From: a virus
Taxonomy: Duplodnaviria > Heunggongvirae > Uroviricota > Caudoviricetes
Direction: 5' to 3' (one strand)
DNA length: 64,000 nucleotides
Virus record (IMG/VR): IMGVR_UViG_3300042554_002914
Position 1 is the stretch's first letter; the number at the start of each line of letters is the position of its first letter. The notes under the pieces are model-generated. The model made no database searches, was not told where the DNA came from, and saw only the letters and a program-made list of their open reading frames with translations. The translations under genes and the position numbers were made by a program. Positions 4,290 to 9,699 of the stretch are shown piece after piece.

Positions 4290-4733
4290 TCAAGTTCTGT
4301 CCCAAATATTGACGGTCAGTTCCACTTCAATTTCCTGGACGTTTCCGCTGTCGCGATCAACGTTGGCAGTAGTGATTGATAGGAATTTACAACCGTAGCA
4401 GGTGTACGCGCCACCGGCTGGAGCAGATCCTGTACCAGTACAGTCCCTGGGGGTTACTGTAACGGTAACATCTTGACAATTGTAGTTTAACCAGAAGTTC
4501 TCTAATTGCTTGAAGATCGTAGGATCATACGGAGCAGTAAGAGTAACATTATCTGCAGTTCGTGGGCCAACGACATGGTACTTTCGGTTTCCAGTGCCAT
4601 TGGCGTATTCGCTCTTTTCGGAAGAATCTTTGATACCACTGAATTTTGTGAAGACAGCGATTAAAGACACCCCGTTGGGAGCTACGAACGATACCTCGTA
4701 TTGCGACTTTGTTAAAGGTCTGAGAATTGCCAT
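4290..4733 (-). CDS. Tail tube protein (T4 gp19/Afp1-like)
   Basis: 147 aa; FTKFSGI...EYANG...GPRTADNVTL and C-terminal NVDRDSGNVQEIEVEL pattern of contractile tubes. Confidence 0.8.
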   Translation of the reverse strand: MAILRPLTKSQYEVSFVAPNGVSLIAVFTKFSGIKDSSEKSEYANGTGNRKYHVVGPRTADNVTLTAPYDPTIFKQLENFWLNYNCQDVTVTVTPRDCTGTGSAPAGGAYTCYGCKFLSITTANVDRDSGNVQEIEVELTVNIWDRT

Positions 4734-4761: not shown

Positions 4762-7700
4762 TCAGGACAAGATGTTGGTGATCATAGCGCCAGAACCGAT
4801 AAGACCAGATGCACCGAGGCCAACCAAGTTAACCACACGTTCGATGGTGATTTCAGCACGCACGACACGGCGTTCGCGAATGTAGTACTCCAATTTGTTA
4901 TCGTAAAGGCTCTTTATCCTCTACATCTTTGTATTTCTACAAAGTTCAGACTATATCTTTGCCTTACATCCTTATGTAAGACATTAGGCGCTCGTGGAGT
5001 TTTCATCTGTTCTAGATTACTAACTCTAGTCGTTGAACGTTCGTTTTCTCCCGAAAACGCTTCGCTGCTGATTGCCATGGTTTGAAGTTCAAACGTTAGG
5101 GTCCCAGCAATTCACCTAATTTCTTTTTATGTCAGACCCCAGTAGTTAAGGACGGACAGCGGGTGTTCCTGTGAGTTGATCATTTTTGTTAGCGTAAAGG
5201 TTATTTATCCTTCACTTCTTTACATTTCTGCAAAGATCAGACTATATCTTCTTCCTGAAATTTCTTATCAATCCGGTAACATGACTATCAGGTAGATTTA
5301 AGTGTCGTGCGAACTTGCGAATTGCTGGTTTACCCAGCTCTACCCAAAGTTCAAACAATTCATCAAACCTAGACCATAACTCTTTTCTCGATCTGGGGTT
5401 ATTTATTCCCCTTACCTTTAGAGACAAGGTTTTCGAGATTTTCAGTTTATGCTCTTCAGTCATTTTTCTACCAGTCCAGGGATGATTTGACTTATCCTTG
5501 AAATGATTTTTATGCCAGTCACTGTTTTTTCTTTTAGCTTCTTCTGAGCTTCCTAATTTGGGGGAAATTAAACTAATCTCCCTTGAACCTAGCCCCCATT
5601 GTTTTGAACTTTTCCAAATTGCCCACCATAATTTTTTATTATGGGGTTGGGATAAACTTAAAAGTAAATGGGCTATGTAGTGTTCTCTCCGGGTCAGCAT
5701 TACTAGGTTTGATACTTCATCATTCCCTCCACAACAAATAGGAATAATGTGATGTTTTTCAAGCCCATTTTTGCTTCCCCTTCGTTTGGGGATTGGCCGA
5801 AGTAAAAGTAAACGTGATGTGATAAGATTCCAATACCACTTTTCCCATTTATTAAGAAAGTGACATTCTATCAGGAGTGGGGCACTCGTGGATGGGTTAT
5901 TATTTTCGGTATTCACCATCTAGTCGTTGAACCTTTTGACTACAACTCTATTATAGCATAGAGTCCGAAATAGTCAACTTGGCTGCTGATTACCATAGCT
6001 TTCAAACTTTCGTTTGAAGCCGTAGGCTTCCCAGCAATTCACCCCATTGATCTGCGGATCAGGCAGATAATTTGACGTTACCGTCAAACCACGCATTCAA
6101 CTCGTTTAAAAGAAACGATGTTATTAACATACGTGTAACTGAAGGCCGGAGTCGCAGCATTAGCACCACCCGCAGGCATGATCGAATCAGAAGGGCCGTT
6201 GGGGCTGTAGAACAGGAGGATGCCATTGGCGGGGAAGACAGGCTGCAAGGAGCCGTCGTTGGCCAAATAACGCCCTTCAGCTACGCGCAGGCCACGCTCA
6301 AGACCGAAGTAGCGAGCGATGACATCTGTGTCGATGCTATTGGCGGAGGTGTACTTGATACGATCAAGGATCGCTTCGTTGGTCAGCAAGAGGTCGAAAA
6401 CCGAAGTTCCAAGAACAGCGGAGTTCGGACGAATGCCGATCTGGTTGGCAACAGCACGCTTCAGGGTCAGGATGTCCTCAATGGGATTAGAGGTTGCACC
6501 AGACCATGCGGCAGGGCCAGTGGCTGTGCCATAAGCGGTGTTGAAGGCGGTCCAGGTTGTAAAACCAAGACCAGTTTGTGAGCCAGGAGTCCCATTGTAG
6601 GGCTCGTATGGATTGTAGCTGCCAGTCACTGAAACAGCTTGAGCAACGGTGTACTCGTAGCTGTTCATTCATTATGTTATCGCGAGGGCTCTTTATCCCT
6701 TGCTTCTGCATGTTTCTATGCAGTTCAGACTATATCATCGTTTTGTAAACAAAACGTCAGGCGCTCGTGTCAGCTTCATTACTGTTCTAGTAGTATGCTG
6801 TTAGTCGTTGAACGTTCCGTCAATCCCTTGACGGCTTCGCTGCTGATTACCATAGCATCAAACTTTCGTTTGAAACCGTAGGTTTCCCAGCAATTCACCC
6901 AATTTTCTAAATGAGATTAATCTCATAGGGCCAATGTGTTTAGCCTAGACATCGCGTTGCGAGTCTCGATGGCGCGTAGCATTTGTTAACTCAGCGGCTC
7001 TTTATCCACTGATTCATTACCTTGTCGTTGGTAATGTTCAGACTATATTATTGCCCCACTATGTACACGATTACTGTACTTTGTAAGACATTGGGCGCTC
7101 GTGTCAGCTTCATTACTGTTCTAGTAGTATGCTGTTAGTCGTTGAACGTTCCGTCAATCCCTTGACGGCTTCGCTGCTGATTGCCCACGCGGGGGTTCCA
7201 GCAATTCACCCAATTTATAGTGGACCTACGCTGCGATCGAAATCGTTCGTAAAAAATAATCCACTTGTGCAGGACCTTCTCCTGCGTTTTCGATTCAATA
7301 ATGTTATCGCAAAGATTTTATTCTATGCTTCTTTACATTTCTGTAAAGTTCAGACTATATCTTCACCCCTGTTTTTCTTTCTTAGCTTAGCCATATGCTC
7401 ACGGGCAATCTGCCTATGGGTTTCAGACTTTTCTTTATCCGCCCAGTACTTTTTGGCGGACTCACTTCTCTTTTCCTTTTCCTCTTCAGTTTGAACCCTT
7501 CCTCTATTAGCTTCGTGAGCTTTTTTAAGTGTTTTTTCGGGCAGGGATTTACCCATCTTGGTTTTACTAAGTCTTTCTCGCATTTGCTTGGACTTAGGTC
7601 TTCCTTTCTCGGCTGCCCCCGGGGCAATACCGAATGAGGTCTTTTGTAGGGAAGTAGCTAAAATAGATGTACGTGGTCGGTAGGTAATGGCGCCTTCTCC

Positions 7701-9530
7701 GCATTTAACTCCCAACATCCTTCTAACTGCATACCAGTGTTTTACTGAGTTAGCACCTTTCGCAAGGAGGACATGGGCTATGAAGTGTTCTCGGATTGTT
7801 AGTTTTACTCTGTTTCCTTTGGAGTTATCCCCACCGTCACACTTAGGTATGATGTGATGGACGTGGTATCCCCTTTCCTTGGAGATTCCTCTATACTTCC
7901 TGGAGGAGCAGAGTTCGTGGTACCATTTTAACCATTTGTTAGGGTGCTGGGCGCTCGTGGATGGGTTATTATTTTCGGTATTCACCATCTAGTCGTTGAA
8001 CCTTTTGACTACAACTCTATTATAGCATAGAGTCCGAAATAGTCAACTTGGCTGCTGATTGCCTTGTGTTTCAGAGAAGTCACTCCTGAAACCGTCAGGG
8101 TTCCCAGCAATTCACCCAGTTTTTCTATCAGTTTTTCAACTGACGGAGGCTATCGATCTAACCTCTTCAGGCAATTCCCAAGCCACTACTTCTTGTTCAA
8201 GAGCGTAGGGCTCAGAGTCGTAACGGCTCTGTACATACGGAATGTTAGTCCCGTAAGCACGGCGGAAGTCGTTAATAGCAAATTGTTCCTTCAATTATGT
8301 TATCGCAGGGGCTCTTTATCCCCCACTTCTCTTTGTTTCCAAAGAGTTCAGACTATATCATCGTTTTGTAAACAAAACGTCAGGCGCTCGTGGAGTTTTC
8401 ATCTGTTCTAGATTACTAACTCTAGTCGTTGAACGTTCCGTCAATCCCTTGACGGCTTCGCTGCTGATTACCATAGCATCAAACTTTCGTTTGAAGCCGT
8501 AGGCTTCCCAGCAATTCACCCAATTTTTCATAACCCCTCACGGAGTTAAGCGGCATATGGAATACCGAAGCGCAGGATACGTCCTGCACGAGTTGGCGTG
8601 TCTACCACCGGTGCTATGAATAATATACAAAACTTAACGTTTTGCTCTGCATGTTTCCATGCAGTTTAGACTATATCATCATCTTTGCCTAAGCAAAGAG
8701 TCGGGCGCTCGTGGAAAGATTATTCTTGGGTCAGTCACTTTCTAGTCGTTGAACCTTCTTACTTCACTCTTATTATAGCAACAAGAGACCCGAAGTAAAC
8801 TTGGCTGCTGATTGCCTCTTTTGCGTAGCAAAAGTAAGGTGTCCCAGCAGTTCACCCGATTATTCGACAGGGGTCACCCCCTGAAGGAACCTCATTGATT
8901 CGCAATGTTGGTAGACGGTAGCATGAAACCTTGCGCGAGGGTGGTGAGACATTTGTTAACGTAGAGGCTCTTTATTCCCTACCTCTCTTTGTTTCCAAAG
9001 AGTTCAGACTATATCATCGTTTTGTAAACAAAACGCCCGGCGCTCGTGGAGTTTTCATCTGTTCTAGATTACTAACTCTAGTCGTTGAACCTTCCTTTTC
9101 TCCCGAAAAGGCTTGGCTGCTGATTACCATAGCTTTCAAACTTTCGTTTGAAGCCGTAGGCTTCCCAGCAATTCACCGGATTTTCTTTGTTAAAAACAAA
9201 GCCACTCCTTTAAATGGGCAATATGTTATCGCAAAGGCTCTTTATCCCTTGCTTCTACATGTTTCCATGTAGGCCAGACTATATCATCATCCTATAACTC
9301 CCATGCTGAGGAGTCAAGGAGCTGGGCGCTCGTGGAGTTTTCATCTGTTCTAGATTACTAACTCTAGTCGTTGAACGTTCCGTCAATCCCTTGACGGCTT
9401 CGCTGCTGATTGCCTCTTTTGCATAGCAAAAGTAAGGTGTCCCAGCAATTCACCCAGTTTTCTGCCATCATTAAAATGACAGGGACCCTAATTAATCCAC
9501 ACCTGCGTAGGTCTGTTGTAGATTCATCAT
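4762..9530 (-). CDS. Major capsid protein, 351 aa, 10 exons: 9530-9495, 9218-9214, 8949-8898, 8620-8564, 8291-8161, 7295-7259, 6979-6942, 6669-6131, 5180-5149, 4890-4762
   Basis: Exons sum to 1056 nt in one stop-free frame MMNLQQTYAGVDPILTTLAQGFMLPSTNIANFIAPVVDTPTRAGRILRFGKEQF...NPIEDILTLKRAVANQIGIRPNSAVLG...GSGAMITNILS*; VDPILT and G.RPN motifs and position after protease/decoration genes fit an HK97-fold MCP. Confidence 0.9.
4891..5148 (-). mobile_element. Group I intron 9 of MCP gene (258 nt, ORF-less)
   Basis: P GAATTGCTGGG, Q AATCAGCAG, R TTCAACGACTA, S AAGATATAGTC; 5' exon ends in U, intron ends in G. Confidence 0.9.
5242..5919 (-). CDS. Intron-encoded HNH homing endonuclease with NUMOD3-like tail
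   Basis: HHIIPICCGG...NLVMLTRREHYIAH motif; HPWTGRKMTEEHKLKIS repeat. Confidence 0.9.
   Translation of the reverse strand: MVNTENNNPSTSAPLLIECHFLNKWEKWYWNLITSRLLLLRPIPKRRGSKNGLEKHHIIPICCGGNDEVSNLVMLTRREHYIAHLLLSLSQPHNKKLWWAIWKSSKQWGLGSREISLISPKLGSSEEAKRKNSDWHKNHFKDKSNHPWTGRKMTEEHKLKISKTLSLKVRGINNPRSRKELWSRFDELFELWVELGKPAIRKFARHLNLPDSHVTGLIRNFRKKI
5950..5977 (-). promoter_or_regulatory. Sigma70-type promoter inside intron 8, upstream of HNH ORF
   Basis: TTGACT-N16-TATAAT with extended -10 TG, about 30 nt before ATG 5919. Confidence 0.7.
6670..6941 (-). mobile_element. Group I intron 7 of MCP gene (272 nt, ORF-less)
   Basis: P/Q/R/S; IGS GGCC pairs with exon GGCU; CAUU pairs with 3' exon AAUG; terminal G. 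Confidence 0.9.
6980..7258 (-). mobile_element. Group I intron 6 of MCP gene (279 nt, ORF-less)
   Basis: P/Q/R/S; IGS GUCCAC pairs with GUGGAU; GCGUAG pairs with 3' exon CUACGC; terminal G. Confidence 0.92.
7350..7988 (-). CDS. Intron-encoded HNH homing endonuclease with NUMOD3-like repeats
   Basis: HHIIPKCDGG...NRVKLTIREHFIAH motif; KGRPKSKQMRERLS and MGKSLPEKTLKK repeats. Confidence 0.9.
   Translation of the reverse strand: MVNTENNNPSTSAQHPNKWLKWYHELCSSRKYRGISKERGYHVHHIIPKCDGGDNSKGNRVKLTIREHFIAHVLLAKGANSVKHWYAVRRMLGVKCGEGAITYRPRTSILATSLQKTSFGIAPGAAEKGRPKSKQMRERLSKTKMGKSLPEKTLKKAHEANRGRVQTEEEKEKRSESAKKYWADKEKSETHRQIAREHMAKLRKKNRGEDIV
8019..8046 (-). promoter_or_regulatory. Sigma70-type promoter inside intron 5, upstream of HNH ORF
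   Basis: Identical to the intron 8 copy: TTGACT-N16-TATAAT. Confidence 0.7.
8292..8563 (-). mobile_element. Group I intron 4 of MCP gene (272 nt, ORF-less)
   Basis: P/Q/R/S; IGS GCCG pairs with CGGU; terminal G. Confidence 0.9.
8621..8897 (-). mobile_element. Group I intron 3 of MCP gene (277 nt, ORF-less, apparent terminal A)
   Basis: P/Q/R/S; IGS GUUC pairs with GAAU; AUGAG pairs with 3' exon UUCAU; frame requires ...ATATTA|TTC. Confidence 0.85.
8950..9213 (-). mobile_element. Group I intron 2 of MCP gene (264 nt, ORF-less)
   Basis: P/Q/R/S; IGS GUGG pairs with CCAU of the micro-exon; terminal G. Confidence 0.9.
9219..9494 (-). mobile_element. Group I intron 1 of MCP gene (276 nt, ORF-less)
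   Basis: P/Q/R/S; IGS GUCC pairs with GGAU; begins with in-frame TAA; terminal G. Confidence 0.9.
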
Positions 9531-9651
9531 AATAGATGATTTCCTTTTCTAGGTTGACTTCAAAGATTGCGTTGGCAATCTAACCCAAAAGTCCGAAAAC
9601 TTCGGGGTCACTGTAGTTATACCCACACTTTGCTAATGGAAGCCTAACCAT

Positions 9652-9677
9652 AAAAAAGGAGCCCCTTTCGGAGCCCC
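9652..9677 (-). terminator. Rho-independent terminator after head decoration gene
   Basis: GGGGCTCC-GAAA-GGGGCTCC then T6. Confidence 0.8.
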
Positions 9678-9699
9678 GTAGTAAAAATTCAATCAGCAA

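Follow-up and report, generated by a model that had tools for sequence, protein, structure and literature searches.

Group I introns are held to end universally in guanosine, a base (omega-G) regarded as mechanistically required because it occupies the guanosine-cofactor pocket during splicing's second step. How, then, is a capsid gene expressed when one of its group I introns ends in adenosine? The question is raised by the major capsid gene of IMG/VR virus record IMGVR_UViG_3300042554_002914, of which a stretch of 64,000 nucleotides (nt), hereafter the window, was analyzed. This gene lies on the minus strand (positions 9530-4762) and is interrupted by nine group I introns, the third of which, intron 3, has A8621 as its last base. 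We consider it likely that intron 3 is a complete group I ribozyme of the Twort/T4 type, without an open reading frame (ORF), which ends in A and is still accurately removed in infected cells.

The terminal base of intron 3

On the minus strand of positions 4927-9518 Rfam found eight group I introns over threshold and two weaker matches, and the nine introns were placed from their P1 helices and conserved 3' tails. Removal of the nine segments (8897-8621 in the case of intron 3) leaves a stop-free frame encoding a protein of 351 amino acids (aa), which is a Phage_cap_E protein as its largest exon matches that Pfam family. Synechococcus phage S-CBWM1 has an intronless major capsid protein of 341 aa, to which the protein is 68% identical and with which it is colinear exon by exon, with no insertion or deletion (indel). 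The window is part of an uncultured freshwater (lake) jumbo cyanophage-like genome. The record nearest to it, G001, is an IMG/VR phage genome of 279 kb that has terminal repeats and a CheckV completeness of 100%; it contains 14-17 group I intron matches and only one capsid locus, and the intron-split gene is thus the sole capsid gene of the phage. In G001 a second gene, a long way from the capsid locus, holds a cluster of three further group I introns (G001:C1:20378-21454).

The boundaries of intron 3 were set by colinearity with intronless orthologs and by comparing an intron-free contig, L279, with the genomic locus L272. A degenerate search of IMG/VR with the exon 4 peptide gave 120 matches; ~109 of them run from ...NIAN (once NIAK) straight into FIAPVVDTPTRAG (FIAPVVD) with no intron, while six carry a G-ending intron at the same point and four an A-ending one. 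The peptide is invariant across ~115 related contigs. Since the ~109 intronless orthologs read through ...NIAN/FIAPVVD (a slash marks a splice junction here and below), the protein junction is fixed at Asn31/Phe32, and comparison of these sequences indicates that an indel is impossible there. Exon 3 ends ...AUU GCG AAU and exon 4 starts UUC AUA GCA; a C follows GCGAAU and an A precedes UUCAUA, so that the boundary is unable to slide, any other cut changes the product, and the last base of intron 3 is therefore A8621. Its 3' end reads ...GUAUAUUA/UUC (in minus-strand DNA ...gcaaaacgttaagttttgtatatta/ttcatagcacc), and the terminal guanosine expected of a group I intron is absent.

The same A is found in six assemblies from six samples, each with its own haplotype: the window, L019, L272/L020, L021, L022 and L273. 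The five records other than the window comprise four IMG/VR contigs from four samples (one of them also in the Joint Genome Institute (JGI) metagenome set) and one further JGI contig. Only 3 of the 277 intron positions vary across the six haplotypes, namely in the P4/P5 junction region, in the loop of a hairpin and in the P9.1 stem, where the sole variant (C8639U, in L273) turns a C-G pair into U.G and so keeps the pairing. The flanking genome, in comparison, differs by ~4-5% between records sharing the A-ending intron; intron 3 thus appears to be either conserved or recently spread. A diverged phage lineage is fixed for the A, and a metagenome scan with N at omega for G variants returned only the same 127-kb contig that bears L272 and three chance matches.

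These results agree with a sequence-only reading of the locus, which had intron 3 ending in A and intron 1 in ATATTG (...acatattg, at G9219). It had also stated that the nearest upstream G would frameshift the gene, and indeed use of G8628 as the 3' site would add 7 nt and bring a stop at the exon 4/5 joint.

Contigs from which the introns are missing

The exact junction 23-mer GCGAAU/UUCAUAGC occurs once in IMG/VR, in L279, a contig of 5837 nt (5.8 kb) from sample 3300012770. Compared with L272, the locus on the 127-kb genomic contig that carries intron 3, it is identical at 4683 of 4683 bases, across 4.2 kb of flank and every exon, and lacks 11 segments of 259-280 nt. A U precedes every one of the 11, and the last base is G in ten of them and A in that of intron 3. 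The same 351-aa protein and junction were found on three more contigs of 1.36-1.56 kb (samples 3300012777 and 3300012772 and run SRR5839259) that begin 20-68 nt ahead of the ATG. Precise removal with joined exons is thus seen in L279 and, in all, in four junction contigs, presumably of RNA origin. One co-assembly of the project, 3300013295, is a metatranscriptome (10.1101/324970).

Spliced mRNA is by a wide margin the likeliest source of L279, given its identity to an intron-bearing genome, the 11 exact removals and the transcript-like shapes of the contigs; the RNA nature of its library is inferred. The junction placed by the earlier reading is present on contigs that look like RNA. No long DNA contig with the intron 3-less junction was found in IMG/VR. 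The fully spliced protein of the window haplotype (351 aa, at least 99% to exon 8) was absent from the protein collection, where only the intron-3-retaining P0001 was present.

In contig L273 (sample 3300012766), which begins 13 nt ahead of the 5' splice site, the whole of intron 3 is retained and exons 4-10 follow free of introns. If L273 is RNA, intron 3 would have been the last to go, with neither step yet done; similar short contigs of other lineages keep G-ending introns as well, so its retention is only a hint of the slow, rate-limiting step that the sequence-only reading had listed as one option.

Several observations on the processing of this gene were made along the way. At least 11 group I introns lie within the first 500 nt of the capsid coding sequence of L272, separated by exons as short as 8, 9 and 15 nt, and all of them are missing in the matching L279 (L272:6210-9539 compared with L279:4177-4683). 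Introns 1 and 2 of the window are separated by an exon of 5 nt, CCCAU (9214-9218), which is kept in the product, as the intron-free L279 reads ...GTCGAT CCCAT TCTCACC. Beyond the downstream gene, L279 closes with 95 nt (L279:5743-5837) that duplicate a part of capsid exon 8, apparently through faulty assembly of a transcript with very high coverage. Between capsid Pro25 and Ser26, L275-L278 contain a group I intron of 215 nt (e.g. L276:704-918) whose core is a variant one (GGGUGAACUGCGGG, UUCAGAGACUA, AAGAUAGUCCGA); it is retained in these four short contigs, from four samples, which are otherwise without downstream introns. L274, a contig from the metatranscriptome co-assembly, runs at 690-800 from the 3' end of one intron (...GATAACACAATG) directly into the interior of the Asn/Phe-site intron, so that exon 3 and that intron's first bases are skipped; mis-splicing, an intron-intron product or a chimeric assembly may account for the join, and no genome matching L274 was found. 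Upstream of the capsid gene, between it and a gene for a 157-aa protein, a GC-rich hairpin is followed by a T run (window 9640-9690, ggggctccgaaaggggctcctttttt); the start points of the three transcript-like contigs, 20-68 nt before the capsid ATG, lie downstream of it.

Ribozyme core, guide pairing and 3' domain

Intron 3 matches the full length of the RF00028 model (8647-8907) with 94.3 bits against a cut-off of 50, the second best score of the nine introns. As the sequence-only reading had noted, P7 is unchanged: UUCAACGACUA and AUAUAGUCU, its two strands, do not differ among the nine introns of the window, and in R/S (CGACUA and UAGUC) intron 3 matches its eight G-ending siblings at every base. 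If assigned as in Tetrahymena (G264-C311), the guanosine-binding pair would lie within this helix, whose strands show no sign of a pocket mutation like the laboratory nucleoside-specificity switch reportedly obtained by Michel et al. in 1989 and Been and Perrotta in 1991. P8 is a hairpin of 19 nt, and ~30 nt separate R from P3' (8741-8712), where the P7.1/P7.2 hairpins of subgroup IA would lie; by comparison with the Twort and td sequences, intron 3 may belong to that subgroup. The sequence GUCUA after P7 is found in intron 3 alone among ~70 family tails, elsewhere in the family being GUCUG with an invariant G. It was considered as a compensating change in the pocket and rejected, as GAUAUAGUCUAAAC is common in unrelated phage introns with tails that look G-ending.

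The internal guide pairs in a single run with the ligated exons GAAU/UUCAU. In P1, GAAU(C) faces (G)GUUC and the wobble pair U8898.G8890 stands at the 5' splice site, as is required of a group I intron; in P10, UUCAU and AUGAG form five contiguous pairs at 8620. When 40 candidate 3' positions were scanned, five contiguous pairs were reached only at 8620 and at one position inside a hairpin, and at most three at sites following a G, in agreement with the P10 by which the sequence-only reading had placed the 3' site. G-ending orthologs L055 and L113 have exon UUUAUCG opposite guide CGAUAAG, compared with UUCAUAG opposite CAAUGAG in the window; the third P10 pair, A-U in the former, is G-C in the latter with both sides changed, a compensatory change which supports the helix and its register. 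The Asn31 codon is AAC in nearly all intronless alleles and AAU in all intron-bearing alleles with a readable 5' exon end, as the U.G pair at the 5' site requires; L105, L106 and L112 have no intron at the Asn/Phe site, yet carry AAU.

The 3' domain sets intron 3 apart. The sequence-only reading had described its P9 region as unlike that of the other eight, which is true of P9.1 and the tail, the P9 hairpin itself being ordinary. After P9, intron 3 has a short hairpin and a 6-nt tail instead of the siblings' GGAUAAAGAGCC hairpin and GNUAAC...G tail. Among 70 distinct 3' tails collected from capsid loci, 65 fit the order P9, P9.1 (with a GAUAAAGAG-type loop), GNUAAC, 2 to 10 nt and G, followed by a recognisable exon; one of the remaining five ends in G on inspection, one is unassigned, and three are intron 3 haplotypes. 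The P9.1 of intron 3 is the minimum-energy fold (ensemble frequency 0.91, z -4.5) and is predicted to sequester G8628, the nearest potential G-ending splice site. Outside the intron 3 lineage, a 16-mer of this hairpin had only 12 matches in IMG/VR, chance ones in coding DNA.

Table 1. Position of intron 3, its flanking exons and its structural elements in the window.
Feature	Position	Strand	Remarks
Group I intron 3, major capsid gene	8621..8897	-	277 nt, no ORF, from C8897 to A8621
Omega position	8621..8621	-	A in place of the near-universal G; the + strand has T
Exon 3	8898..8949	-	52 nt, ...LTTLAQGFMLPSTNIAN; last U (8898) in the P1 U.G pair
Exon 4	8564..8620	-	57 nt, FIAPVVDTPTRAGRILRFG; first five bases, UUCAU, form P10
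Internal guide	8887..8896	-	AAUGAG (8896-8891, P10 strand), then GUUC (8890-8887, P1 strand)
R element, P7 5' strand	8742..8753	-	UUCAACGACUAG; carries the G of the putative guanosine-binding G-C pair
S element, P7 3' strand, and J7/9	8665..8677	-	GAUAUAGUCU and J7/9 AAA (siblings: GAA)
P9 hairpin	8647..8664	-	CUGCAUG-GAAA-CAUGCAG; predicted fold, near-identical to P9 of intron 7
P9.1 hairpin	8627..8645	-	GCAAAAC-GUUAA-GUUUUGU; 7 base pairs (bp), contains G8628
3' tail, single-stranded	8621..8626	-	AUAUUA; 6 nt (siblings 11-16 nt), aligns with AUAUUG of intron 1

We propose that in the first step free guanosine would be bound in a normal, unchanged pocket. In the second, the 3' site would be positioned mainly by the 5-6 bp P10, while the two U's preceding omega could form P9.0 with A-A of J7/9 and the competing G8628 would be buried in P9.1. 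The terminal A would then sit weakly in the guanosine site; exon ligation would probably be slower, still fast enough for capsid protein, and 3' splice-site hydrolysis and circularisation, which depend on omega-G, may be suppressed. That the A is selected and not just tolerated, either making ligation a slow, controllable step in the maturing of capsid mRNA or blocking hydrolysis, circularisation or reverse splicing while the guanosine pocket stays standard, seems to us unlikely. Were it so, intron 3 would be a natural omega-A-ligating ribozyme with G-ending controls at the same site, and it might possibly dock a non-G 3' splice site in an unrecognised way.

Alternative explanations and known systems

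Several points weigh against accurate removal of intron 3 by an ordinary ribozyme. RNA-library status is documented for 3300013295 only and inferred for 3300012770, 3300012772, 3300012777 and 3300012766; in principle the spliced contigs could derive from a co-occurring strain without intron 3. The P10 of intron 3 is not longer than that of its G-ending orthologs (5+1 compared with 7 bp), and nothing we could recognise in its sequence accounts for tolerance of omega-A. Price and Cech in 1988 and Michel et al. in 1989 are said to have found that omega-A strongly impairs ligation when the G-C pair is unchanged; with the pair unchanged here too, efficient self-splicing would not be expected.

It is in this respect that the best of the alternatives has its force, although we regard it as improbable: the second step may be helped by a maturase-like or chaperone-like protein of host or phage, or by coupling to translation or to neighboring introns, naked RNA stalling after the first step. 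An unchanged binding pair should hold omega-A poorly, to judge from in vitro work reported on Tetrahymena, and the siblings' conserved loop and GNUAAC tail are missing from intron 3. Moreover, the mitochondrial intron ND5-717, the only other documented omega-A intron, splices inefficiently (PMC6545197) and is classed as host-factor-dependent (PMC3679873). However, no maturase-like ORF lies within or beside intron 3, the core of which is indistinguishable from that of its siblings. The phage group I introns that have been studied generally self-splice, which also counts against a helper.

Far less likely, in our view, is that intron 3 represents a dead or dying allele, as the sequence-only reading had suggested as one option, the intron-free contigs coming from co-occurring phages that lack it. 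Omega-G is regarded as essential for the second step, L273 keeps intron 3 with every later intron gone, and the samples behind the intron-free contigs are presumably, but not certainly, RNA. Nevertheless, six diverged haplotypes share an intact core with structure-preserving variation, and the gene is the only one for a capsid protein in a complete 279-kb relative with terminal repeats. In addition, intron-minus contigs carry the predicted junction, L279 being identical to the intron-bearing genome throughout its 4.2 kb of flank and all exons, and IMG/VR held no long DNA contig with that junction.

Another junction, ending in G, is highly implausible. Two options preserve the reading frame on paper and give the intron a G at its end, both needing a 5' site not preceded by U: G8628 with a shifted 5' site, inserting Ile-Leu, or G8614 combined with a 5' site that follows C8897, turning Phe-Ile-Ala-Pro into Pro-Pro. 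Both lose the U.G pair of the 5' site and leave at most one contiguous P10 pair; G8628 is paired within P9.1, and FIAPVVD is invariant and free of indels in ~115 orthologs. The canonical junction is present in IMG/VR, whereas searches there for the G8614 junction and for that of G8628 with an unshifted 5' site found nothing, the Ile-Leu junction not having been searched. Finally, an error of sequencing or assembly at 8621, which the earlier reading had also raised and for which nothing but the rarity of omega-A speaks, is ruled out by the same base in six independent assemblies of six samples, each a distinct haplotype.

In related phage contigs, G-ending introns at the Asn/Phe site (L055, L064, L113 and L042/L054/L116) have the insertion site and P1 GAAU/GUUC in common with intron 3. 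L055 shares its P7-P3' block (P7.1/7.2-type), and the P8 of L064 resembles that of intron 3. In contrast to it, these introns end ...GGUAACAAGUG or ...AUAAUUG, keep the family P9.1 loop and form a P10 of 7 bp, and some carry an HNH gene in P8, L055 among them, where intron 3 has none. The simplest history would start from a G-ending, endonuclease-bearing ancestor at the Asn31/Phe32 site, from which the homing-endonuclease gene was lost; the 3' end would then have been remodelled, with P9.1 shortened, the GNUAAC tail gone and omega changed from G to A. HNH endonuclease ORFs, which match Pfam HNH and NUMOD3 weakly, lie in introns 8 and 5 of the window (5242-5919 and 7350-7988). No isolated phage was found to carry intron 3, only short core matches being returned.

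Among known systems, intron 3 presumably has the same R/S core (UUCAACGACUA and GAUAUAGUCU) as the subgroup IA introns of Twort orf142 and T4 td, nrdB and nrdD. Introns of this type have extra hairpins between P7 and P3', a P9-P9.1 domain, a 3' site defined by P9.0 and P10, multiple copies per gene and, in some copies, HNH endonuclease genes. As far as our searches went, none of them is known to end in a base other than G; intron 3 differs in its terminal A and in the absence of two features conserved among its siblings, the P9.1 loop and the GNUAAC tail. The Tetrahymena omega G-to-A and guanosine-site mutants, reportedly the work of Price and Cech in 1988, Michel et al. in 1989 and Been and Perrotta in 1991, offer a second comparison: with omega-A, ligation is said to be blocked or strongly slowed unless the G-C binding pair is changed too. 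The base change is the same in intron 3, but here the pair is unchanged and removal is seemingly accurate in nature.

The third comparison is with ND5-717 of hexacoral mitochondria (sea anemones and mushroom corals), a natural omega-A group I intron (PMC8146996, PMC6545197). It is an obligatory intron (PMC3679873), the exons of which are perfectly ligated in vivo while more than 70% of the precursors are unspliced (PMC6545197; PMC8146996), and its authors suggested weaker binding of omega, slower ligation and fewer omega-G side reactions (PMC8146996). Omega-A as such is thus already known, and intron 3 is no new class of element. The claim that such introns are rare stands, ND5-717 being the only other natural case documented and 65 of the 70 family tails fitting the G-ending pattern; we found no literature report of a non-G omega in phage or bacterial introns, a weak negative given that the Greek letter cannot be matched in a search.

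Like ND5-717, whose guanosine site is drawn as normal, intron 3 combines a terminal A with an essential protein-coding gene and accurate ligation, in its case as seen on RNA-like contigs. ND5-717, however, is strictly vertical, organellar and of fungal origin, with a giant P8 insertion holding 2-16 genes, and splices inefficiently, sometimes by back-splicing, whereas intron 3 is compact, ORF-less and a member of a mobile phage family with G-ending versions at the same site. Neither is it obligatory or vertical, the site being empty in ~109 contigs and occupied by G-ending introns in six. Annotation rules that demand a terminal G would mis-call this capsid gene. While the other natural exception is a highly derived mitochondrial intron that seemingly needs host factors, intron 3 would place the exception within a small, otherwise textbook phage ribozyme in an essential gene, with close G-ending relatives at the same site, and thus provide a compact natural system for the docking and ligation of a non-G 3' splice site.

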